From a bacterium (GTDB taxonomy: Bacteria > Omnitrophota > Gorgyraeia > Zapsychrales > Zapsychraceae), in assembly GCA_030429765.1 (NCBI GenBank), contig JAUIER010000003.1, forward strand, positions 144,402 through 208,401: a stretch of DNA of 64,000 bases, read 5' to 3'. Made by a program: the position numbers and the translations under genes. The notes below the pieces were generated by a model. That model saw only the letters and a program-made list of their open reading frames with translations. It did not search any database and had not been told where the DNA came from. Below, in pieces: positions 1-52,103 of the stretch. How positions within the stretch are numbered: position 1 is the stretch's first letter; every line of letters starts with the position of its first letter.

Positions 1-269
1 AACTCAACTGGAGTGAACATCTGCCGGCCAATGCCACGCCGCTGCGGATCGGGGGCGATACCGCCATGACAGCCGCCAAGCCGGATGCCGTCGGGGGGAT
101 TGACTTCACCGGTGATCGGCTGAATATCCAGCTCAAACGCGACGCCGACGGAATCCCGCTGCCCATGCCCGTCCAACCCTTACGTCATATCCAGATCGAC
201 GGTCTCGTGCCTGTCATTCTCGACATCCGACCGATTAACGTGTTACCATTGTTTGTGGCTAGGGAGTAG
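1..269 (+). CDS. 3' end of a gene that starts upstream of the window; C-terminal ~60 aa homologous to C-terminus of the giant ORF (40908-52103)
   Basis: Frame 3 is open from nt 3 to TAG at 267-269 (LNWSEHLPANATPLRIGGDTAMTAAKPDAVGGIDFTGDRLNIQLKRDADGIPLPMPVQPLRHIQIDGLVPVILDIRPINVLPLFVARE*). High GC, like the core genome. The tail aligns with the giant protein tail ...DPVGGINFDADLIDLEIRGDHAPIELPFNPDQLQQLRIDGFSPVIIQIAPVTNLPLL. Confidence 0.55.
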   Translation, partial: LNWSEHLPANATPLRIGGDTAMTAAKPDAVGGIDFTGDRLNIQLKRDADGIPLPMPVQPLRHIQIDGLVPVILDIRPINVLPLFVARE

Positions 270-373
270 ATTAGCGGGTCGGATGTGGGGAGTAGCGAAA
301 AGATATTTTTTAGAGAAGTTTAAATTACGGGCCAGGCGGAGTCGCGTTGGTGCGAGAGAACGGTAAGAAGGAC

Positions 374-424
374 GGAGTCGCTTTGAAGCTAGCGACTCCT
401 GCCCGCGATTACTTCGTAATCGCG
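374..424. repeat. Two adjacent perfect hairpins (GGAGTCGCT-8nt-AGCGACTCC and CGCGATTA-5nt-TAATCGCG), part of a cassette-boundary repeat
   Basis: Reverse-complement stems read directly at 374-382/391-399 and 404-411/417-424. No T-tract follows, so this is not a typical intrinsic terminator. Confidence 0.6.
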
Positions 425-461
425 TTAGTGTCAGAACTCCCTAAGGTATAGCAGGGCATAA
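425..461. repeat. Boundary repeat family 'TT(A/G)GTGTCAGAACT(C/A)CC...' copy 1
   Basis: ttagtgtcagaactccctaaggtatagcagggcataa is ~80% identical to 2412-2454 (ttggtgtcagaactacccaaagtacagtattgcaggagtataa). The shorter core 'cctgcccgcga...ttggtgtcag' recurs at 1525-1583 and 1741-1763. Confidence 0.55.
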
Positions 462-499
462 ATTTAGGTCGTAATTCATTATATTAGCGAAGAGGCCTG

Positions 500-545
500 T
501 CCCAGTTTGACCGTTTATGATTAGCCGGCAAGCTGGGGCTGACCC
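500..545 (+). repeat. 46-nt direct repeat (copy 1 of 2; other copy 2938-2983) spanning 17 nt of 5' leader plus the first 10 codons (MISRQ[A/I]GADP)
   Basis: tcccagtttgaccgtttatgattagccggcaaGCtggggctgaccc vs tcccagtttgaccgtttatgattagccggcaaATtggggctgaccc: 44/46 identical. Confidence 0.8.
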
Positions 546-855
546 GTTCCCCGGAATGGTTATATACAATCAATGTGAGTTTGAAGAAACGCAAGATTTC
601 TGCTGGCACGTTAAAGAAGATAATCTGCCTAAACAAGGTGTCTATGAGTTGGCGAAATTATTGAATAAGTATCAACTTCTAGACATAGATATGATTACAT
701 TAAGCAGGCAGGAGTTGCTGGATAAATACAATATCGAGTTTTCCAAAGATCTAAATATAGATGAATTTAATCCCATTGTTGATGAATTAGAGTCAATTGA
801 AGTTGCTATGGTTGATGATATAGAGGAAGGAGATAGTTATTTTATTCATGAGTAA
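517..855 (+). CDS. hypothetical acidic protein (112 aa) with MISRQAGADP N-terminus, in the low-GC island
   Basis: ORF track. Start lies inside the 46-nt repeat. Its stop overlaps the start of the next ORF (ATGAGTAA at 848-855). Confidence 0.45.
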   Translation: MISRQAGADPFPGMVIYNQCEFEETQDFCWHVKEDNLPKQGVYELAKLLNKYQLLDIDMITLSRQELLDKYNIEFSKDLNIDEFNPIVDELESIEVAMVDDIEEGDSYFIHE

Positions 856-1132
856 TCTATACACTTGCCCCTGTTGCGGATATAAGACGTTGAATGAAAA
901 AGCTGGTGGAACATTTGAAATTTGCCCAGTTTGTTTTTGGGAAGATGATCCTGAGCAATTTGAGGATCCCGAATATGTTGGTGGTGCGAATGGGGGCGTC
1001 TCATTGAGGCAAGCACAGAAAAACTTTCTTGAACTTGGTGCCTGTTCAGAAGATATGGTAGACAAGGTAAGAAAGCCTAAAGATTATGACAAGAAAGATC
1101 CAAATTTTAAGTTGATTGGAGAGCCTGAATGA
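848..1132 (+). CDS. cysteine-rich CPCC-family small protein
   Basis: CPCCGYKTLNE...ICPVCFWEDDPEQ...YVGGANGGVSLRQAQ matches the CPCC-domain signature (recognised from memory). Translationally coupled to the preceding ORF. Confidence 0.55.
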   Translation: MSNLYTCPCCGYKTLNEKAGGTFEICPVCFWEDDPEQFEDPEYVGGANGGVSLRQAQKNFLELGACSEDMVDKVRKPKDYDKKDPNFKLIGEPE

Positions 1133-1179
1133 ATTATTGGGACGAAATTCATAGGGTTTAAATAGATTTTGCTCGTTTC

Positions 1180-1425
1180 TTAGTCTTCGGATTCCTTATG
1201 CTGCATAATATTAAAGTAAAGTCTTTTGTTTCGCATAATAACAACCCCGGGTAAAAACCATACGGTTAATACATCAATTGTAAATTCCTTAAAACCTGTG
1301 AATAGCTGAAAAAGTATTCCCGTAACAATCATCGCAACAATGATATGTGACATAAAGATTCCGTGGGATTCGCCTCCCGGAGGTACATTGAGTAATCGAT
1401 CGAGGCATCTCTTACAGAAATCCAA
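1180..1425 (-). CDS. hypothetical small membrane protein (81 aa)
   Basis: ORF track only. One hydrophobic segment (IIVAMIVTGILFQLF). Low-GC island. No homology recognised. Confidence 0.25.
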   Translation of the reverse strand: MDFCKRCLDRLLNVPPGGESHGIFMSHIIVAMIVTGILFQLFTGFKEFTIDVLTVWFLPGVVIMRNKRLYFNIMQHKESED

Positions 1426-1524
1426 AAACCAACCTGTAAGGACCCTAGTTAAGCAAGAATATTTTTGTGTAGATCGAGTTTATTGTTAATTTAGTTTTGA
1501 TGGAAGCTCCGGGGGGGGTACACC

Positions 1525-1583
1525 GAGTCGATCTGAAGCCCGCGGATCCTGCCCGCGACAGCATTTAAAAAAATTGGTGTCAG
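1525..1583. repeat. Boundary repeat family copy (gagtcgatctgaagcccgcggatcctgcccgcgacagcatttaaaaaaattggtgtcag)
   Basis: Aligns with 366-433 (gagtcgctttgaagctagcgactcctgcccgcgatta...ttagtgtcag). Confidence 0.5.
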
Positions 1584-1740
1584 GGTAAATTCAAGTAGCT
1601 AGTGCGAAGTGGGCTTTTGAGATTAATCCAGAATGGAAAAAGGCGGAGGATATATTAAAAATTGCTCAACAGAAAAATAATTTTTAGTAAAGATTATATG
1701 CTGAAGAAGAGGTTTAGATGTTCTGTGATCGCGACAACCT

Positions 1741-1763
1741 GTGGCAGTCGCATTGGTGTCAGG
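1741..1763. repeat. Boundary repeat family, short copy ending in ttggtgtcag
   Basis: gtggcagtcgcattggtgtcag shares the 10-nt core TTGGTGTCAG with 1574-1583 and 2412-2421. Confidence 0.35.
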
Positions 1764-1806
1764 ATCCTTTAAAGAGCAGGGACGCATATGTTAAGAAGGA
1801 GTAATA

Positions 1807-2277
1807 ATGGAGTCTATTGAAGCTATTTCCACGATAATAAAAGAAAATGATGAAATTTCAGACTTTTGTTTGCCTGTAGAGGTGAAAGTAATTTATGAGG
1901 CTGAGAAGGAACTTAATGTGCTACTACCAAATGATTACAGAGAGTTTCTATTAAGATTTGGTTGTGGCAATTTGGGTTCACAAGAAGTTTATGGTGTAGG
2001 GATAAAGCCAGTTGGTATACCTAGTGTCATATGGGCAACTAAAGAACAACGACTACATGAACCAAACTTTCCTCATGAGTATATCCTATTCCATAATAGT
2101 GGTTGTGGAGGTGGGCACTGTTTAGATACCTCAAGGATTTCCGGAGATGTTTGTCCTATAGTACGTTGGGAAATTGGCTGTAATGATAAGTTGCAAGCCG
2201 AAACAATTTCTGATTCTTTTTCGCAATTTATACTTAAAATATTTAAGGATGAACTACAAGGTCGGAATGATGATTAG
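1807..2277 (+). CDS. SMI1/KNR4 (SUKH superfamily) protein, immunity-protein type
   Basis: LPNDYREFLLRFGCGNLG...EYILFHNSG is the SMI1/KNR4 core signature. RBS-like AAGGAG sits 6 nt upstream of the ATG. Confidence 0.7.
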   Translation: MESIEAISTIIKENDEISDFCLPVEVKVIYEAEKELNVLLPNDYREFLLRFGCGNLGSQEVYGVGIKPVGIPSVIWATKEQRLHEPNFPHEYILFHNSGCGGGHCLDTSRISGDVCPIVRWEIGCNDKLQAETISDSFSQFILKIFKDELQGRNDD

Positions 2278-2411
2278 TGACAAATATCAATATTAAATAT
2301 TAGCTAAAAGTAGGATTGGAGAAGTCAAGACCTGCCAGTCAAATATCTAGTAATTGTTAGTATATCTGCAACGAATGCATACTAGTTTTTAAAATATTCC
2401 GTGAATATTAA

Positions 2412-2454
2412 TTGGTGTCAGAACTACCCAAAGTACAGTATTGCAGGAGTATAA
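2412..2454. repeat. Boundary repeat family copy
   Basis: See 425-461. Confidence 0.55.
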
Positions 2455-2849
2455 GCCGAAATACATTCGATAAAACGAAACTACTGTCCCTATTCGGGGG
2501 CTGTCCCGTTACTATTATGCTACCCAAATATTTATTTTATGTTGATGTAGAAGTATCTGCTGGTAAGGGGAATGAGAAAATGCCCGAAGAGTTACTGGGG
2601 GCGTATGTGAATTGTTATACTTTTGCAATCAATAAGGATGAAGCCATATTGAAAGTTAGAGGGTGTTTAGAAGAAGATAACTATAATATAATCAGCATTA
2701 ATGATTGCTATAGAGCAGATTTAGATCAATTTTCCATCGACTATGATGAGTCAACTGGAGAGCCCACGAAAAGAGATATCGAAGAAATACGAGAGTCATC
2801 TGGCGTGTTTTATGCAAATTTCTTTGGGTATGAAAAGGACGAGCAGTGA
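2412..2849 (+). CDS. hypothetical protein (145 aa), cassette ORF
   Basis: ORF track. Begins inside boundary repeat copy 2412-2454. Low GC. Confidence 0.4.
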   Translation: MVSELPKVQYCRSISRNTFDKTKLLSLFGGCPVTIMLPKYLFYVDVEVSAGKGNEKMPEELLGAYVNCYTFAINKDEAILKVRGCLEEDNYNIISINDCYRADLDQFSIDYDESTGEPTKRDIEEIRESSGVFYANFFGYEKDEQ

Positions 2850-2937
2850 TCGTTGGTGAAAACTAAAGACAAAGACTCATAAAATACGGCAACAATCAAG
2901 TTTGGAGCGTAATCCAGTTGATAGCAAATAAGACGTA

Positions 2938-2983
2938 TCCCAGTTTGACCGTTTATGATTAGCCGGCAAATTGGGGCTGACCC
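2938..2983 (+). repeat. 46-nt direct repeat copy 2
   Basis: See 500-545. Confidence 0.8.
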
Positions 2984-3917
2984 AGTAGATTACATTTTAC
3001 CTATGCAGAAAATTAATATACTTATTCAAAAATATGAATTCAATGATGAAGCCTTGATTAAGGAAATCGTCCTACTGGTGCCTAGTCAAGATTTGGTAGA
3101 GCGAATCAATGAATGTTTTCAGAAAGAGAGTGTTTACGATAAGCAAGGTGGACTTATTGAACTTATCCAAGACATTCTTTGTTGCCGAAACGGTTGGGTG
3201 ACGCAACGTTATTCCAACAATTTCCGTCGAACTTTGGATGCATCTTCATTTCCGAATATCCTAAATCAAAAAATAATTACCCATGAAAATCGGATCAATT
3301 ATCACCTGACTAGTTTCTTCAAATATAGTAATAAGAGGTATCTCCCGATATTGCAAAGAGCTTACAAGCATGCATTAAAATATGATCCTTTAGAAGTATC
3401 TATGATTGTGGGAGAAATGTACTGGTTATCCAAGGAGTTTAATTGGAATATAATCAAGAATTTGAGTCGAAGTCAGGATTTTCTGCATCGATGGGCAATA
3501 CTAGACATTTTCGGTGCTATATCCATCAACAGGGATGAGCAATATGAAAAAAAGAAATTGGGTATATTACGCCAGTTGCGAAATGATCCAAATCCGTTTA
3601 TCGCTCAAGAAGCCTCATGGCTCATTTCTGAAAGTCGGTATGTCCAGGCGTATAATAAGGGAATGCCAAAAAGTAAACCAGCAACCATAAATTATAAAAA
3701 GAAGATGCGTCTATACAGTAAGGCAAAGGCAGAAGTCGAACTTAGCTATACTTTTGGGGAAATAAAGGCAAAATACAGCCGCCTCCGAAAATATTTTCCA
3801 GAGACATTTGCTGTTCGTAACGTAATCGAAGGAATACTAATGTTTGGTTGGCAGAAATCGGTTATAGATAAAGATTATGATAAATGGTTAGCGGTGAAAA
3901 TCAAAGATACCATATAG
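2955..3917 (+). CDS. hypothetical protein (320 aa) with MISRQIGADP N-terminus
   Basis: ORF track. N-terminus encoded by the 46-nt repeat. No domain recognised. Confidence 0.5.
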   Translation: MISRQIGADPVDYILPMQKINILIQKYEFNDEALIKEIVLLVPSQDLVERINECFQKESVYDKQGGLIELIQDILCCRNGWVTQRYSNNFRRTLDASSFPNILNQKIITHENRINYHLTSFFKYSNKRYLPILQRAYKHALKYDPLEVSMIVGEMYWLSKEFNWNIIKNLSRSQDFLHRWAILDIFGAISINRDEQYEKKKLGILRQLRNDPNPFIAQEASWLISESRYVQAYNKGMPKSKPATINYKKKMRLYSKAKAEVELSYTFGEIKAKYSRLRKYFPETFAVRNVIEGILMFGWQKSVIDKDYDKWLAVKIKDTI

Positions 3918-3948
3918 GGCAATCGAAATGCTACGAACATTTTTTTTC

Positions 3949-4278
3949 TTACTTTTGATTTAACTTATTGAAGCAATTGTTACATACAATACGACATTCT
4001 TCGCTCAGGGATAGGCCATGGATTTCAATAGATTGACCATTTGCATTAAGTTCGGTTTCCAAATAATACTCTCCCGAAGGGAGTGGAGAAAAGCAGGCTT
4101 CACAAATTTCTGGAAACAGGTTTTTACACCAATCTTTACGGGTTTTGAAGCAAATGCTACAAACATAAAGATATGAGATAGTTTTTCTTGCATTGGTAAC
4201 TTCTGAAAATTGCCAAAAATTCACGGCAGTTAAATTTCCGCATATATCTGTATTCTTTCCACATTGTTCACAGTTCAT
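3949..4278 (-). CDS. hypothetical cysteine-rich protein (109 aa)
   Basis: Many CxxC pairs (CEQCGK, CSIC, CEAC, CNNC). Low-GC island. Weak RBS. Confidence 0.35.
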   Translation of the reverse strand: MNCEQCGKNTDICGNLTAVNFWQFSEVTNARKTISYLYVCSICFKTRKDWCKNLFPEICEACFSPLPSGEYYLETELNANGQSIEIHGLSLSEECRIVCNNCFNKLNQK

Positions 4279-4419
4279 TTTTTGAAGTGTATAAGATTTA
4301 TTTGAGGACCTATTATATCATCAAATTTGGTATTACTACTAATCAGCATGATGAAAATAGTCAATCTCTGGGGACTATTCAGTATTCCCCACCCCCCAAA
4401 TTTGTGCTATAATCCCGGC

Positions 4420-4722
4420 ATGGCTGAACGATTTGTACGGGTTTTCTCTAAATTGGATCTCTCCAAGATCACCCCGCAATTATTGATTTACGGTGATATT
4501 TCCGGGACGTGCGCCGGATGTCAGAAGATCGACATCAAGCTCAATCAGCCGGTGTGTCCCGAGTGCAAGAGCGAGTTCAAATTCATCGCCTTTCGCAATA
4601 TCCGGGCCCATTTACCCAAATTACAGCAGTTATCCGCGCAGCGGCCGAGTGTCACGATCATCGATTACGATGATTACAAGCGTGAACTCAGCGCGTCGAA
4701 GGCCGCGGATTTTTTTAAATAG
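4420..4722 (+). CDS. hypothetical zinc-ribbon protein (~100 aa)
   Basis: CAGCQK...CPECK zinc-ribbon pattern. GC rises at the internal ATG 4420 (MAERFVRV...), so that is taken as the start. Confidence 0.45.
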   Translation: MAERFVRVFSKLDLSKITPQLLIYGDISGTCAGCQKIDIKLNQPVCPECKSEFKFIAFRNIRAHLPKLQQLSAQRPSVTIIDYDDYKRELSASKAADFFK

Positions 4723-4764: not shown

Positions 4765-5907
4765 GTGATCAACAAAGACCGTCTCATCAAGCTAACCCAA
4801 AAACTCATTCGCTTTGATTCATCCAACCCGCCGGGGCTGGAATACGAATGCGCCAAGTTTATCGAAAAGGATATGCGGTCGCTGGGGCTCGAGGTTAAGA
4901 CGGTGAGTTACGCTCCCAAGCGTCCGAATGTGATCGCCACGTTAAAGGGAACACTGCCGCGCGCCCAGGCTAAAAAGGAAGCGATTCTGCTGACACCGCA
5001 TTTCGATACCGTACCGGTAGGCAGCGGATGGAAGTACAAGCCATTTGGCGGCGAGATCGTCGGCGGCAAGATCTATGGACGCGGGACGAGTGATGATAAA
5101 GGCAACACGGCGGCGTGTATGGAGGTGATGCGATCGCTGGTCGAAGACGGGGTCCGTCTGAAAAAAGATGTGATCATGGCCGCGACGGTGGATGAGGAGA
5201 CCGGATCGCAGATGGGGATCATTCCATTGCTGGATAAAAAAGTCCTCACACCCAAATTCGCGCTGGTGGTGGACTCCACGGAATTCGACGCGATGATCGT
5301 GCAGAAAGGTGTTCTGCAGTTTCGCGTCCAGATCTTCGGTAAAAAAGCACACAGTGCCTATAACTGGCGCGGTGACAGCGCGATCGAAACCGCGGCGCGA
5401 TGTATCAATCGCCTCAAGAAAATCAAATTTCCACACAAAAAACACAAACTCTTACATGCCCCGTCGTTGAATGTCGGTGTGATAAACGGGGGTGACAAGG
5501 TCAATATGGTCGCGGACCTCTGCGAGTTTACCGTGGATCATCGTTTCTGTCCGGGGACGAATTATCGCGAACCGCTCAAATTGATCAAAGAGACCCTGGC
5601 CAAAGAGACCAAGAAATTCAAGATCATCCTCGATGATATCCAGCAGCCGTATGAGATCAAGGCCGATCATCCGTACGTGAAGACCTTTCTGGATGTCAAC
5701 AAACGGATGAAGGCGCCGGCGGGGATTAAAGGCAGTGAAGGCGCGACCGTGATCACCTTTTTTCAAAAGCACAAGATTCCGGCATTTGCCACCGGCTGGG
5801 GCGCGCATGGCACGCTGCATGCCAATGACGAACACATCTACATCAAATCGCTATATAAGGGAACGCAGGTGTTGGAGGCGTACGTCAAGGAATACGATCA
5901 GCTGTAG
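4765..5907 (+). CDS. M20-family metallopeptidase (ArgE/DapE-type deacylase)
   Basis: DSSNPPG...TPHFDTVP...GRGTSDDKG and DEETG metal-binding motifs. GTG start with AGGAG 7 nt upstream. Confidence 0.85.
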   Translation: MINKDRLIKLTQKLIRFDSSNPPGLEYECAKFIEKDMRSLGLEVKTVSYAPKRPNVIATLKGTLPRAQAKKEAILLTPHFDTVPVGSGWKYKPFGGEIVGGKIYGRGTSDDKGNTAACMEVMRSLVEDGVRLKKDVIMAATVDEETGSQMGIIPLLDKKVLTPKFALVVDSTEFDAMIVQKGVLQFRVQIFGKKAHSAYNWRGDSAIETAARCINRLKKIKFPHKKHKLLHAPSLNVGVINGGDKVNMVADLCEFTVDHRFCPGTNYREPLKLIKETLAKETKKFKIILDDIQQPYEIKADHPYVKTFLDVNKRMKAPAGIKGSEGATVITFFQKHKIPAFATGWGAHGTLHANDEHIYIKSLYKGTQVLEAYVKEYDQL

Positions 5908-49900: not shown

Positions 49901-52103
49901 GGTTCGTCTTGATGAGGCGGATTGGCTCACGTGGTCTGATCGGCTAAGCGTGGTGGAGCAACTACTAGACACGCTCAAGCAAATGCACGACGTGAATATC
50001 TCGCATGGCGATATTTATGACGGTAACGTCCTGGTGAATCGACAAGGACAAGTTATGCTAATCGACATTGAGGATGGCCAATTTGATGCCTCCGGTGCCG
50101 ACATCAAAAAAGATCTGCAAAACGTCATCGCTCTGCTGCAGGATGTACTGGACATTGACTGGCTTACTTCAGTGAGCGAACAGGATTTAATCGATAGCGG
50201 GTTGCAGGAATTGTTAACGCTGTTACGTCAGCGGGATGACAAGATTTCTACGGCAGTGAATTTATGGCGATCGGTGAGAGCCGTCAACGAATACTTTACA
50301 GGTAGGTCGGATACTCCGGCGGCGGATCGGGCGGCGCTGGCCGGCGATCAACAGATGAGCGGGCTGAATTTTGATCCATCGATTCAGCGATTTGTGCGCG
50401 CGATGGATGGGCGCCGTGTGCGGGATGAATATGGCCGAGAGTATGAGTTAGTATTGGATGTGGTGGATCCACGCCATCGTGTTGTTGACGTGCATCTACA
50501 AACGTCAACGGGGCAGCAAACGGCCAAATACGTCATGAAATTTGTTGTAACGGACAAAGGTGTTCGTTCCGGCGGTCTGGATTTGCAGCGGGTCAGTTTC
50601 GACGGCGGAGTCGGCGGTACGCACATGGATCTGTCAGATATCGGGTTAGGTCGGGCCATCTTCAAATTGTTTGTGGATGGTTTGAGTGGCGGCGAAAAAG
50701 TTTTTGACTCGGTCTACAATATCCAGACGCTGGAAACATTGGCGAGTGATTATTATCTCGATGATAGCGGTCGGGTTCGACGAGTCTTTGACGATCATTT
50801 GGTGATCGACACATTTGACGACGGTGTGCCGGAAGGTCAAATCGGATTGAGCACCGTCTGGGGACAGACTTTGTTGGGGCGTATGTTTAGATCCACGGGG
50901 CTGACATTGTCAGAGTTATCGATTCATAACGGGGAGCGTACCTTGAAAAATTTGGAGGCCCTGCGGTTTATGCTCCGTCATTCGGCCTCGGGATTCGCGC
51001 CGATTTTTGATATCACGTTGACCAAAACATCAAATGAAGAAGCGGATCAGAAACAAGCGGGACGGGAGCTTTACCTTGAATGGATGCAACGTCCCGTGGA
51101 CGGGCGTCTGGCTGCTGAGCGTTATGTCGAAGGGCTGCGGAATATTGGTGAGATGTTTGTGTCAATGCCCCGTTACAGCAAACTCCCGAATATTTTCGGG
51201 CCGTGGATTGCCGATTACTTTAAGCCTGAATCCGTCGAAGCGCAGTACCGTGTCGTGCAGCATTTCAATGATAAGTTGTTGCAGTCAGGTGGTCTTGACC
51301 CGTTGACCCCCAGAGGATTTGAGAACGCGCTGCTCGAGCTTCACTCCAGGCTTGGGGCGGTTAATGATGACATTTCAATCGCGGGACGGATTCACGATGA
51401 CCAAAAGTATGCGCGCTTCCGCGAGGCCATCGAGCGGATGTTCACGCCGGCATTTGCCGCGATTATCAATTCGGGAGATCCGGACGCCGTGTTTGAAGAG
51501 GCTAGTCGAGTGTTTGTCGAGATTTGGTCGTCCCAGGTCTTCCAGAATGGCAATCACCGAATGGCCAGCTTTGTGATGAATTATATCTTGATCCGGGCCG
51601 GCTACCAGCCGTTTTATCTGGATCTGGTCAACGCGTCGGGGTATATCAACATCCTGGACAATGAGCAAATTCAATCGGCCGGAGAATATGAAGACGAATT
51701 GCTGGCCGAAATGCAGGAAGAATTTGCTGCTTTGCTGAAATTCACGATCCTCAAACAGTTGCCGGACGATTCGCGGACGGAAGCGGACGAAGCGATGACC
51801 TCCCAAGATCCGGTCGGGGGGATCAACTTCGATGCGGACTTGATCGATCTAGAGATTCGAGGTGACCATGCTCCCATAGAGTTGCCTTTCAATCCGGATC
51901 AGCTGCAGCAGTTGCGCATTGACGGCTTTAGTCCGGTGATCATCCAGATTGCGCCGGTGACAAACCTTCCGTTGCTGCTGGGGTTGCGGCCCGACGGCCC
52001 GGATTCTGAATCTGATAGAAGCACGGCTCAAATGGTTCAAGGTCCGGTGCAGCCATTCGCGGATCCACGTCGATATGAGACGGATTCTGTGGCAAAGAAA
52101 TAA
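40908..52103 (+). CDS. giant mosaic protein (3731 aa), no single-family assignment
   Basis: Uninterrupted 11,196-nt ORF on the same strand as neighbouring genes. Multiple recognisable domain signatures (see sub-features). ORF-track antisense ORFs inside it are all short. Confidence 0.85.
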   Translation: MSTEHSINNLLWIRRVVAHVLVVAMVVTTVWPASIVHAVQPATISHLPVPGTMVSVSPGYQPMALTGVRIYPANPLQFDFIIDPGDSQLDDQATQSASERLIKYFLTALTIPKNDVWVNLSPHQQDRVIPEHLAHTDMGRDMLSQDYLLKQLSASMLYPERDLGAAFWENIRRRAYQQFGSTDIPVRTFNKVWIVPDKAVVYEQQDAAFVVESRLRVMLESDYQAYLSSRNVSDAAGSSDQSTEQQIDQLTSDMIRDLIIPEIEKEINEGRQFAALRQIYQSMILATWYRRNLTQTLLSQLYVGQSKIAGVDIAEKDIKDKIYQQYLKAFKAGVYNYIREDIDPATRQVVPRQYVSGGLTMDVDKVFRTFNDVDTARQLNARLTDADQALLSARVVLNPEGQGSVQDLSAQLDDWLERLKSSTTDASMTADPDAPARLLAGEVISISAADIPLRAEAIAEVIEMYEADHEDELAAEDVTEEQIYAVTYRRLNSRAVQGLEAFLNQAVRLHREARPLSILFEGENFLHLAELIDNATDALRQRYQQNIRRAEIRFEILEYDRHIELQILDNGIGWTETGSKDFLSLGGLGTALHEAKKTFWEQNIDLNVSPRRDQQGAAVAIRIPKSDISIEDLFGAESAAAYFDLTTNPLAQMAPSAILVHPYISDSIYVDKMKGFDRALILFNKNYPSTPRLAAIDNVKTLVSRDGRYNSAVDMGDRVVFLGGHCRQCLSQAILQTAERAFKSGDEFRAILPTDGIYTTADLVSVGEQDPERAVLLEDVLSGLTPMDGSRFAYLTKEIKSSLMAAYAKDGLDQLSIIVESDGQREFVVEAGRERRRLILEFVGPQDRAMLVPDKGYGFKRGPLKANLKPYAQQLRVTFDRLSFGFLTAGELDALVNAVMKIRADSMAARPEFFGALPHRLTDQTARETFMSRILQQRTLYQERTNTDGSRMFSETDIHGMLFQKLIPISWLDQLMTDGLNRSQAMTIVTGWSDPLGVWTTEFKPLVEEFVSQGLSRTEAVSIILQWKNPKARWEKYLKPVRDELVRDGLSPTTATRVVIRWTNPDQKWSQELKPIRGQLIDRGMSLGDATDAVISWSYPLERYDAVQQSIALLAADSVILTGRIREIFWEHNYQGVLERLIQQPGVSRSKALDYAQPIKDFEERYLADRAMLFDAETEAKLDAPLSENLYFSERLQTVFRRNGLITHRDLTSMTAIEFTRLPEIGDILSVEAEQTLEQDGLTFGMTKSGLRVWLPTLYQTLRSDPVLGTKKRLMIILEDRGIEKFGDLVKYSYSDLVNMPGINWSSAMILEQRLQAHGLTLGVGKWVRKLQSLEDRAMLSDVPSLKFVKLVLPELNRQVNMSAIGRRVRTFRTDRSETQTQTSQRSGVKYATYLTLERGARADTDLKNMILLRNHFGTSLSVLVDGQASAFDTSGPILFDAIAPVVANNLVLLRTAMGLTLKELAAHVGMSSEYLVRIESGDLGEMTLQNIVSLSETFGIHPEVFISRKLELADMIEIISDTDQFRQLPETLDASRRREIGSRIAILRRLRQLTQEDVAVRLGITPDQLGKLENGRLQQLNVEFFVKLQSILDASVYFLLTGKENGHSRVELDVERVRQDFGENLIVLQEFFGMTYKTFAEKLGIPTRTLTTLKNGGLYQLEHINRVARRTRVPIHILLGSSAAFRDYLDGHSQRVLNANVPEQLDAEQVRRSLRLHLEAQGRSDQELLDYVSQYHTNDLTKFLSGKSQTVSLKTLLLAANFLGTNFLNVLTGSLWNGNVELETPAYMVSRMDRELYRAMQSIIHEQGRTDTVSSSAGLPSINVFLEFIHATDSSVEEVLRQAERDPVQDLLMNWGRVRKNSLEDAAMISTTLRARNARLREEYALQRLYQPSDRIEIVQAEYFSAFFRQNDIDIAAFARRADVPEWMVYDLLEGRELELAESIRVLKALYEVATLQEALEMHAFTYRYWQEHRGEADQQPLLNAQLIRERHNARTESSAYSPSPEALEVLMVHDIREAYTGTGSRRLNLTRFLSSADLSRGHLKYNFPMPDGSMLKRQLSMRVGTALDHVEMIIHKKADKMSGVSFLGYKLSSEGQYRRHRVSYFEYVNGIFEHQRATPEFVRQDRAMMSVPEFLFDADQLQYLGLPMPEFLRRAEVHERVKSMVEEAVDYTADDPALARRNREHARRSMPGIIIDLRNFDLPYSHLEVHDYEDGFMFFIPEGDRMLIHPYIDDVIELLGLLNGDEVEGEYPQASENDRLEPGYWNQWQRSSDWKTYVDEIHPTVASAVSHVLDRIKSQDKQIRVVDIFAGEGNFVQHLSGVLKQAHEDVNVAYEVIEGNPSNYRRALDRLSSNGNVTVHPPTDMLDITSLKDILRGSPDIVTALGGLNVSVISREDARKVAQMVFDVLRPGGFFVVSGLTPSLLHADDFRAMGYRIYNQTIPQNFYSRYQPVEVYILQKDAAMLGDTEADKHLKYLIQMIAGELGEDYVEAEEDEDLEGMARDRLMELSLQQRADFYALRGADVFGELIRRPLGSHRDDFDAELGMYTNLRLLGEMLGMTEGFVDFGNTMDPLQLPRLQERVEPWRELVRYVASAEDYATIRREIQQLAGMIDAPRVNEILQRSGLSRYEPEFWFVHLKSIGRMDDVWFDHFHKLAELFYKAFGATFDIGTETEEHTAGPDIFERVIELIVRSTKADPADLETFFADENPDVIALLYVITYGKAPDIHAVRFLYHGSPLVNIDQMIYDSDGMVDFRRGERKLDTNYLSFNPDVSQSYAQDDGLILEFDVAALLALPNKYILGPEIESEEITTTDPIPFTALTTRSKLEVAVKFWKDDAELDLALARALGFLSIVELQKFMRSADPAMLAPLEGDDDDYVENARALEAAIFENHFVSGVEYTALQEFWQESLEFFDESRADYVSERRRVYMDGQQNGEFTVVSRQQGDQAIADALRRAALWHRLNQRNVAGIPRLLSMGLTEDGYMWMRLRGIANAVRLDEADWLTWSDRLSVVEQLLDTLKQMHDVNISHGDIYDGNVLVNRQGQVMLIDIEDGQFDASGADIKKDLQNVIALLQDVLDIDWLTSVSEQDLIDSGLQELLTLLRQRDDKISTAVNLWRSVRAVNEYFTGRSDTPAADRAALAGDQQMSGLNFDPSIQRFVRAMDGRRVRDEYGREYELVLDVVDPRHRVVDVHLQTSTGQQTAKYVMKFVVTDKGVRSGGLDLQRVSFDGGVGGTHMDLSDIGLGRAIFKLFVDGLSGGEKVFDSVYNIQTLETLASDYYLDDSGRVRRVFDDHLVIDTFDDGVPEGQIGLSTVWGQTLLGRMFRSTGLTLSELSIHNGERTLKNLEALRFMLRHSASGFAPIFDITLTKTSNEEADQKQAGRELYLEWMQRPVDGRLAAERYVEGLRNIGEMFVSMPRYSKLPNIFGPWIADYFKPESVEAQYRVVQHFNDKLLQSGGLDPLTPRGFENALLELHSRLGAVNDDISIAGRIHDDQKYARFREAIERMFTPAFAAIINSGDPDAVFEEASRVFVEIWSSQVFQNGNHRMASFVMNYILIRAGYQPFYLDLVNASGYINILDNEQIQSAGEYEDELLAEMQEEFAALLKFTILKQLPDDSRTEADEAMTSQDPVGGINFDADLIDLEIRGDHAPIELPFNPDQLQQLRIDGFSPVIIQIAPVTNLPLLLGLRPDGPDSESDRSTAQMVQGPVQPFADPRRYETDSVAKK
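40938..41030 (+). other. giant ORF: N-terminal hydrophobic signal/anchor segment
   Basis: LLWIRRVVAHVLVVAMVVTTVWPASIVHA. Confidence 0.6.
41200..41600 (+). other. giant ORF: unassigned conserved-looking N-terminal globular region
   Basis: IPKNDVWVNLSP...GRDMLSQDYLLKQL...VWIVPDKAVVYE...ESRLRVMLESDY. No family recognised. Confidence 0.3.
42440..42790 (+). other. giant ORF: GHKL (HATPase_c)-like ATPase region
   Basis: N-box ELIDNATDA, D-box ILDNGIGW, G-box GGLGTAL. Confidence 0.6.
43842..44260 (+). repeat. giant ORF: four tandem 35-aa (105-nt) repeats
   Basis: GLNRSQAMTIVTGWSDPLGVWTTEFKPLVEEFVSQ / GLSRTEAVSIILQWKNPKARWEKYLKPVRDELVRD / GLSPTTATRVVIRWTNPDQKWSQELKPIRGQLIDR / GMSLGDATDAVISWSYPLERYDAVQQSIALL. 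Confidence 0.7.
44470..44885 (+). other. giant ORF: two RNA polymerase alpha-subunit CTD-like (HhH) modules
   Basis: ERLQTVFRRNGLITHRDL...LPEIGDILSVEAEQTLEQDGLTFG and KKRLMIILEDRGIEKFGDLV...MPGINWSSAMILEQRLQAHGLTLG, compared with the alphaCTD pattern RS.N.L......DL....N.G.KS..EI...L...GL.LG. Confidence 0.5.
45060..46770 (+). other. giant ORF: cluster of at least five XRE-family helix-turn-helix modules
   Basis: LRTAMGLTLKELAAHVGMSSEYLVRIESGD, LRRLRQLTQEDVAVRLGITPDQLGKLENGR, LQEFFGMTYKTFAEKLGIPTRTLTTLKNGG plus two weaker copies. Confidence 0.6.
47730..48300 (+). other. giant ORF: SAM-dependent methyltransferase-like region
   Basis: Motif I VVDIFAGEGNF and post-II LRPGGFFVVSG. Confidence 0.5.
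49750..50180 (+). other. giant ORF: aminoglycoside-phosphotransferase / protein-kinase-like region
   Basis: HGDIYDGNVLV (catalytic-loop-like) and IDIED (DFG-equivalent-like). Confidence 0.45.
51400..51670 (+). other. giant ORF: Fic/Doc-like region with Q in place of the motif His
   Basis: QVFQNGNHRMASFVMNYILIRAGYQPF vs canonical HPFx(D/E)GNGRxxR...L...G.P. Confidence 0.5.
51810..51990 (+). other. giant ORF: conserved C-terminal tail shared with ORF 1-269
   Basis: See finding; >25 aligned identities/similarities over ~58 aa. Confidence 0.7.

Follow-up and report, generated by a model that had tools for sequence, protein, structure and literature searches.

A strictly C-terminal tail and an N-terminal domain bracket variable cargo in a family of putatively exported Omnitrophota proteins

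A stretch of 64,000 nucleotides from a bacterium of the phylum Omnitrophota (family Zapsychraceae; GenBank assembly GCA_030429765.1, contig JAUIER010000003.1, positions 144,402 to 208,401 of the forward strand), referred to below as the window, was analysed for a module shared by the C-termini of two of its gene products. One of the genes is cut by the window start. The other encodes a protein of 3731 amino acids, here called the giant open reading frame (ORF). The two genes and the two copies of the module, hereafter the tail, are listed with their window coordinates.

3..269, + strand: 3' end of a family gene (88 codons plus stop), cut by the window start; from translation, with protein P0003 ending in the identical 88 amino acids
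60..260, + strand: C-terminal tail copy 1 (VGGIDF...IDGLVPVILDIRPINVLPLF); hidden Markov model (HMM) match with E=1.4e-25, and BLASTP against copy 2
40908..52103, + strand: 3731-amino-acid family member, identical to P0004
51777..52013, + strand: C-terminal tail copy 2, HMM envelope residues 3624-3702; HMM E=1.9e-27, and BLASTP

Window nucleotides 3-266 translate in frame 3 to ...DTAMTAAKPDAVGGIDFTGDRLNIQLKRDADGIPLPMPVQPLRHIQIDGLVPVILDIRPINVLPLFVARE (stop codon at 267-269), and the giant ORF translates at nucleotides ~51786-51986 to ...DEAMTSQDPVGGINFDADLIDLEIRGDHAPIELPFNPDQLQQLRIDGFSPVIIQIAPVTNLPLLLGL... Comparison of the last 88 amino acids of the truncated ORF with residues 3623-3691 of the giant ORF by BLASTP gave 28/71 identities (39%; E=9e-13), and a six-frame HMM scan of the window found exactly two tail copies. 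The similarity is far beyond chance, and the shared tail reported in the preliminary description is real. The core of copy 2 (VGGINF...NLPLLLGL) occupies nucleotides 51813-51986; its HMM envelope is slightly wider than the interval 51810-51990 given earlier, which spans the core. Copy 1 ends in its hydrophobic part followed by only two amino acids, and a conserved D-x-A-M motif stands just 5' of the tail in both copies. The DNA match that had also been pointed out, GTCGGGGGGAT(T/C)(G/A)ACTTC, occurs in each of the two copies and is no more than the coding sequence of VGGI(D/N)F.

A total of 1.84 billion proteins, representing clusters at 50% identity, were searched exhaustively with HMMER using a 4-sequence tail profile. 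At E<=1e-3 the tail was found in 4,303 of these representatives, and at E<=1e-10 in 1,499; exhaustive HMMER was required, a word-indexed homology search with the two window tails returning just 2 matches. The HMM search proposed in the preliminary description thus places the module far beyond two proteins. In 151/151 best hits, in proteins of 76-4828 amino acids, the tail ends 0-68 amino acids (median 24) from the C-terminus. By these measures the tail is a genuine, widespread and strictly C-terminal module. Its consensus (~65 amino acids) is VGGIDLNPxxLDLQIKRDGxGxPLPxxxQPxxxxxIDGFxPVIINIxPxTNLPLLLG, with GGI, several prolines and the isoleucine and glycine of the IDG motif invariant or nearly so, and two main subtypes were distinguished (...IKRDGNGxPLP... 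and ...TQGxGxDFxxPFDP...). The further possibility that it is a known domain found no support: the window tails and 123 family tails have no Pfam or NCBIfam match at E<=0.01, and the tail has no sequence match in the PDB. A scan of one genome per GTDB species with seven closely related tails and strict search patterns confirmed 130 stretches, from which 80 loci were kept, with up to five loci per genome. The 80 loci are labelled as metagenome-assembled genomes of Candidatus Omnitrophota/Omnitrophica, a minority being labelled 'Planctomycetales' or 'uncultured bacterium'.

The full-length product of the truncated gene is P0003 (2263 amino acids), which is made up of a signal peptide, an N-terminal domain (N-domain), cargo (methyltransferase-like by eye, His_Phos_1 by Pfam) and the tail. 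Besides the tail, the first ~400 residues of P0003 and the giant ORF are 49% identical (E=7e-107). Judged by this similarity, the upstream protein and the giant ORF are paralogs and members of one family. For the truncated window ORF, the signal peptide and N-domain were found only through P0003, outside the window. The corresponding features of the giant ORF are as follows.

40908..41021, + strand: residues 1-38, a predicted Sec signal peptide composed of an RR-containing basic n-region, a hydrophobic core and the site V-H-A↓V-Q; from hydropathy and the family pattern
41022..42149, + strand: conserved N-domain (residues ~39-414, ~370 amino acids), without Pfam, NCBIfam or PDB match
51987..52100, + strand: non-conserved polar C-terminal extension of 38 amino acids, after the tail core

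Family N-termini follow one pattern, in which the basic n-region is succeeded by a hydrophobic core that leads to A-x-A↓Q and LNLPxPGTMV, and 109 of 130 members have an N-terminal hydrophobic segment. These N-termini fit cleavable Sec signal peptides, and the pattern points to cleavage. The N-domain of the giant ORF matches the family HMM with E=5e-274. Among tail-bearing proteins with a length of at least 1000 amino acids, this HMM matches 51 of 59, always at the extreme N-terminus. The N-domain has 564 word-indexed homologs, which bear only the source name 'hypothetical protein' and come mostly from Candidatus Omnitrophica/Omnitrophota.

Proteins that appeared to carry one end without the other were inspected. 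Small stand-alone tail proteins were rejected as products of mis-called starts; for example, P0350, a 153-amino-acid 'J domain-containing protein', is the end of a 1047-amino-acid ORF with a signal peptide and N-domain. Proteins with only the N-domain were likewise rejected as a class, being split genes. Among long contigs with DNA available, a tail-bearing ORF lies just downstream in 4/4 cases, and the splits are due to a frameshift in L085 and L087, an IS66 insertion in L084 and stops in L086. Long tail proteins lacking the N-domain begin at an internal methionine and have no signal peptide, which suggests that they are truncated gene calls. The tail never occurred without the N-domain among the complete genes examined. 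Each complete member that was inspected runs from a Sec-type signal peptide through the N-domain and the variable modules to the tail close to its C-terminus. Because the apparent exceptions resolve on inspection, the tail and the N-domain are regarded as the two ends of one family. The description of the window proteins as otherwise unrelated is therefore refuted by their shared signal peptide and N-domain, and with it the view of unrelated proteins sharing a tag; its placement of the gene that starts upstream in the same system as the giant ORF is borne out, since both carry N-domain and tail.

Public assemblies very often contain family genes in mis-annotated or broken form, with internal starts, or with frameshifts or stops between N-domain and cargo. 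Examples are L083 5319-8462, L085 918-5956, L086 7988-10960, L087 9983-14100 and L084 9878-20935. Assembly errors, decay or phase variation are candidate causes of the frameshifts. As gene callers often truncate these genes, databases hold many spurious short 'hypothetical' or mis-named fragments.

The extension that follows the tail is 2-66 amino acids long in the family and acidic (D+E 21% vs K+R 11%). It comprises only two amino acids in P0003 and 38 non-conserved ones in the giant ORF, so it is dispensable. Extensions show subfamily-specific ends, such as ...KAREPEE(I/V)SxLN. In one subfamily a second conserved C-terminal element was observed, ...LADTExDxDETxPAMKAREPEE(I/V)SxLN-COOH, which neither window protein has.

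A secretion, anchoring or partner-binding role of the tail, as put forward in the preliminary description, is plausible, given that all members carry predicted Sec signal peptides. As a generic transferable sorting or secretion tag, the tail would be read by dedicated machinery regardless of the rest of the protein. Its strictly C-terminal position, the many paralogs per genome with very different middles and the N-terminal Sec signal peptides, as in type IX secretion system (T9SS) cargo, agree with this. The T9SS C-terminal domain (CTD; Por_Secre_tail, PF18962 / TIGR04183; Bacteroidota) resembles the family in combining an N-terminal Sec signal peptide with a conserved module of ~70 amino acids at the extreme C-terminus of many paralogs. 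A glutamine directly follows the predicted signal-peptidase site in the family, and many Bacteroidota secreted proteins start with glutamine after cleavage. Unlike the CTD, however, the tail is tied to one N-terminal domain and not to unrelated proteins. It has no similarity to the CTD (hhalign against a CTD-like module, probability 0.07%), and AlphaFold2 (AF2) predicts no Ig-like seven-stranded beta-sandwich. Neither the window tails nor 123 family tails match PF18962 or TIGR04183 (E<=0.01), and no PorU, PorV or Sov was seen in the 64-kb window. Por_Secre_tail and the family tail are distinct elements, since the relative P0109 carries a Por_Secre_tail-like module internally, followed by D-H-A-M. 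LPXTG, PEP-CTERM and the T9SS CTD sit on unrelated proteins; the tail, because it is coupled to one N-domain, is unlike such a freely transferable tag. No sorting model in NCBIfam or Pfam matches it, acidic and not basic residues follow its hydrophobic stretch, and no sortase-like or secretion gene recurs near family loci. A generic tag is accordingly considered unlikely.

Other export systems gave no better correspondence. The tripartite signals of sortases, exosortases and rhombosortases (LPXTG, PEP-CTERM, GlyGly-CTERM) have no NCBIfam match in the tail, whose hydrophobic stretch is proline-rich and is followed by the acidic extension. As regards type I secretion system (T1SS)/RTX substrates, signal peptides are present in the family and HemolysinCabind is missing from the Pfam output for the giant ORF and 36 relatives. 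The same output contains no autotransporter family, and the conserved C-terminal element measures ~65 amino acids vs at least ~250 for the barrel of a type V autotransporter. Dockerin (PF00404) has no Pfam match in 123 tails, and no dockerin-type helices were predicted by AF2.

Analysis of the tail alone by AF2, using a 123-sequence alignment, predicted no secondary structure (predicted template modelling score, pTM, 0.20), with predicted local distance difference test (pLDDT) values of 74-81 in the conserved core. We interpret these values as those of a segment that may become ordered only on a partner. The tail could also be the structural complement of the N-domain, in a single discontinuous fold or clasp with the cargo inserted between the halves. 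The obligatory co-occurrence of the two elements, the lack of an autonomous tail fold and the moderately confident extended geometry speak for such an arrangement. In the AF2 model of P0193, a natural member of 731 amino acids, the tail is nevertheless of low confidence (pLDDT 30-60, from a shallow, noisy alignment with only ~16 tail sequences) and is not packed onto the N-domain, and the N-domain is modelled confidently alone. We consider a clasp improbable.

The last ~20 residues of the tail, GFxPVIINIxPVxNLPLLLG, have transmembrane-like hydropathy (Kyte-Doolittle 1.78 over 19 amino acids in P0003), and nowhere in the tail is conservation stronger than at the prolines and hydrophobic positions of this segment. 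The segment might accordingly insert into the producer's outer membrane or a target-cell membrane, where it would tether the cargo or carry it across. A canonical helix is opposed by the three conserved prolines and two asparagines, and AF2 gives none; in an inner-membrane stop-transfer anchor, the acidic extension would break the positive-inside rule. With three conserved prolines followed by acidic residues, the stretch matches neither a sortase-type signal nor a stop-transfer anchor of the helical kind. The chance that membrane insertion or anchoring is the role of the tail is judged small.

Short motifs recur between the modules of family proteins. The matches in the window are listed below.

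57..68, + strand: D-T-A-M junction, just 5' of the tail of the truncated ORF
42180..42191, + strand: D-A-S-M variant junction directly after the N-domain (residue 425)
43446..43457, + strand: D-R-A-M junction (residue 847)
44412..44423, + strand: D-R-A-M junction (residue 1169)
44913..44924, + strand: D-R-A-M junction (residue 1336)
46503..46514, + strand: D-A-A-M junction (residue 1866)
47286..47297, + strand: D-R-A-M junction (residue 2127)
48294..48305, + strand: D-A-A-M junction (residue 2463)
49506..49517, + strand: D-P-A-M junction (residue 2867)
51786..51797, + strand: D-E-A-M junction directly 5' of the tail (residue 3627)

The giant ORF has eight D.AM motifs and one D.SM, all between Pfam matches and never inside one, and P0003 has eight D.[AS]M matches. 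In 151 family proteins D.AM exceeds expectation 10.9-fold and [AS]SSP[IVLM] 90-fold, compared with 0.5-1.6-fold for six control patterns. D.AL and E.AM are not enriched, so methionine is specifically required in the junction motif. About half of the tails have D.AM or [AS]SSP[IVLM] upstream, at a median of 12 amino acids. Tail, N-domain and junction motifs represent new, uncurated families, and they merit curation even if their function proves to be another than that proposed below.

Codon usage at the junctions was also analysed. The D-x-A-M codons of the giant ORF are GCG-ATG in 8/8 and GAC in 7/8 cases, with the identical 12-mer GACCGGGCGATG at two junctions; 83 D.AM motifs in other genomes show a milder bias (GAC 57% vs 32% background, GCG 42% vs 30%). 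At nine sites in six loci (L015, L029, L036, L043, L064 and L074) one and the same 15-mer, GCCTCCTCGCCGGTG, codes for ASSPV, and GTG is over-used as the last codon of this motif (13/35 motif sites). Internal translation starts or DNA-level sites were considered and are disfavoured: all synonymous codons and non-start codons occur, despite the mild bias and the GTG enrichment. The codon bias and the shared 15-mer, together with the frequent tandem arrangement of paralogs, would also suit conserved ends that serve as DNA homology arms for cassette exchange, protein similarity being secondary. Against this, the window tails are only 39% identical as protein, every synonymous codon is used at the motifs, the 15-mer is confined to the six loci and does not occur in the window, and conservation follows amino acid properties across thousands of clusters. 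Homology arms are thus very improbable as an explanation.

Between the N-domain and the tail, the following cargo segments were identified in the giant ORF.

42489..42782, + strand: weak GHKL/HATPase_c-like cargo, residues 528-625; below the Pfam cut-off
45246..45872, + strand: XRE-type helix-turn-helix (HTH) array cargo, residues ~1447-1655; HTH_3 E=1.1e-24, HTH_31 E=1.5e-16
47766..48260, + strand: weak S-adenosylmethionine (SAM)-methyltransferase-like cargo, residues 2287-2451; below the Pfam cut-off
49701..50126, + strand: protein-kinase-like cargo (Kdo/WaaP, APH, Pkinase), residues 2932-3073; Kdo E=1.6e-5, above the Pfam cut-off
51327..51590, + strand: weak Fic/Doc-like cargo, residues 3474-3561; below the Pfam cut-off

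The HTH arrays, which also show sub-threshold NCBIfam similarity to RstR and Wmk, and the Kdo/WaaP-like kinase pass the Pfam cut-offs, and the GHKL-, methyltransferase- and Fic-like segments are weaker. Cargo in relatives includes PPDK, PGM, PP2C, receiver, HEAT, GNAT, metallophosphatase, kinase and J domains. Going by their domain assignments, these modules are of kinds that normally act in the cytoplasm. Comparison of cargo among 370 sampled proteins found only two weak matches, and the cargo is too diverse for shuffling to be traced in a sample of this size.

Several further segments were noted in the cargo. About four repeats of ~33 amino acids were seen by eye after the first D-R-A-M of the giant ORF, at window positions 43450-44400 (residues ~975-1110), for example GLNRSQAMTIVTGWSDPLGVW and GLSRTEAVSIILQWKNPKARW. 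In the module that follows, residues 1177-1248 resemble, below threshold, the C-terminal part of an NCBIfam model for the RNA-polymerase alpha subunit. In P0109, the T9SS-type Por_Secre_tail-like module lies mid-protein at residues 1068-1150 with LDHAMT directly after it, and has the look of a cargo cassette captured from the C-terminal end of some other gene.

Considering architecture alone, it is a near-certainty that the family consists of cassette-like proteins with a signal peptide, the N-domain, variable cargo and the tail. The proteins would be modular exported effector carriers with terminal trafficking elements, and their parts have no detectable relatives. The whole polypeptide would be moved across the inner membrane by Sec. 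Since modules that depend on ATP, SAM or DNA cannot function in the periplasm of the producer, the cargo would act in another cell, and the proteins would be carriers of effector modules for a host or prey cell. The tail would be a non-globular element for recognition, translocation or membrane entry that cooperates with the N-domain after Sec, in a step that could be outer-membrane crossing, surface attachment or delivery. The junction motifs would be candidate processing sites at which individual modules are released. Architecture and function taken together, we assign this reading a probability of about 0.5; the functional part, effector carriers whose tail acts with the N-domain in a post-Sec step, falls somewhat short of even odds.

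Several points weigh against the functional proposal. Cleavage of the signal peptide was judged on sequence pattern alone. Most of the cargo is unannotated, several Pfam matches of the giant ORF are below curated cut-offs, and the cargo could in principle be non-enzymatic or work at the cell surface. The AF2 model of P0193 did not dock the tail on the N-domain. Secretion genes, whose co-occurrence the preliminary description had proposed to check, are neither present in the window nor recurrent next to relatives, and no machinery for export beyond the inner membrane or for delivery was seen to co-occur there.

Comparison with known multi-module proteins revealed partial likenesses to the family. 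In MARTX toxins such as Vibrio RtxA, conserved N- and C-terminal ends bracket variable arrays of effectors that act in the target cytoplasm, with defined processing sites between the effectors. The family is like MARTX in its conserved ends around a variable array of modules with inter-module sites. Unlike the family, MARTX proteins use the T1SS, have no Sec signal peptide and contain glycine-rich repeats and a cysteine protease domain; such repeats and protease were undetected in the family, and the ends are non-homologous. Polymorphic toxins and polyvalent proteins, as classified by the Aravind laboratory, share with the family the shuffling of enzyme and regulator modules onto conserved trafficking parts, as well as many paralogs and tandem arrays. 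Polymorphic toxins have a variable toxin C-terminus followed by an immunity gene, whereas the C-terminus of the family is conserved and immunity-type genes are not recurrent. Polyvalent proteins, unlike the family, have no signal peptides.

Omnitrophota are uncultured and ultra-small and are thought to be predators or parasites, according to PMC10066038. Giant Omnitrophota proteins (Archaeovorin-, dockerin-type) are described by West-Roberts et al. (2023, bioRxiv 10.1101/2023.11.21.568195) as products of genes of at least 25 kb with many transmembrane helices, as having SecA-like, C39/S8 peptidase and glycan-active domains, and as adjoining loci like those of type II secretion systems or Tad. 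On that description, they resemble the present family in the phylum label of most genome hits and in being long multi-domain proteins with a proposed action on host or prey. The family differs in its size (0.6-4.8 thousand amino acids), in having one signal peptide only, in the identity of its conserved ends and in lying among housekeeping genes, and the published giant proteins are a different class. Full-text literature searches with the motif strings gave nothing relevant, and term searches within Omnitrophota papers brought up neither the tail, the N-domain nor the junction motifs. Attention has so far centred on giant genes (>20 kb); the present family is a different one and, with at least 4,300 clusters at 50% identity, far larger in number.

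The effector-carrier reading fits the predatory or parasitic lifestyle proposed for Omnitrophota in PMC10066038 and bioRxiv 10.1101/2023.11.21.568195. If export or delivery is what the tail and the N-domain serve, any Omnitrophota genome could be screened for candidate effectors with two HMMs, the two short junction motifs would be available as testable processing sites, and a new secretion or translocation signal might be at hand. A more far-reaching proposal, which we regard as possible though doubtful, is that Omnitrophota have an unrecognised delivery route whose substrates are marked by the N-domain/tail pair. The proteins would be Sec-exported polyproteins that are passed to a host or prey cell and cut at D-x-A-M / ASSP(V/I) to give separate kinases, Fic enzymes, HTH regulators, phosphatases and the like, with the tail as signal or membrane-entry element. 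Were this so, the several thousand clusters would be the effector repertoire of the phylum.

Both family genes of the window lie among housekeeping genes. The giant ORF is preceded by genes for GlgB, GH57 and MalQ and followed by those for an epimerase, a CBS protein and pyruvate kinase; tryptophan synthase, ArgRS and RecJ are encoded elsewhere in the window. The gene most often found next to a family gene in relatives is itself a family member. The next downstream gene starts with the N-domain in ~17 of 80 loci, and one locus has three family genes in tandem. No recurrent partner gene was found near relatives; the neighbours were antisense shadows of the family, UbiE/MenD synteny (seven loci) and assorted housekeeping genes.

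The truncated family gene is directly followed by a low-GC island of ~4.2 kb (window positions ~300-4500; 35-40% GC vs 50-55% for the flanking DNA), which precedes a Peptidase_M20 gene (4765-5907). The island contains genes for a Cys_rich_CPCC protein (848-1132; E=2e-32) and a SUKH/SMI1-KNR4 protein (1807-2277; E=1e-18), along with five small ORFs without a Pfam match. SUKH proteins are immunity proteins of polymorphic-toxin loci, and we take both the SUKH and CPCC genes of the island to be of kinds present at such loci. At 66 other family loci, immunity genes of the SUKH/CPCC type are not a recurrent feature of the downstream DNA, and an M20 peptidase occurs within the 3-kb downstream flank of a family gene in two relatives; for these two reasons the island looks like a local insertion. 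Within it, an 86-nucleotide direct repeat was observed at 460-545 and 2898-2983 (77% identical, with a near-identical core of ~50 nucleotides). This repeat spans the 5' region and first codons of ORFs 517-855 and 2955-3917, both of which start with MISRQ(A/I)GADP. Hairpin-like units GGAGTCGC...GCGACTCC are also repeated in the island, with further repeat coordinates at 337-437 and 1522-1558, and this organisation suggests a cassette-like arrangement.

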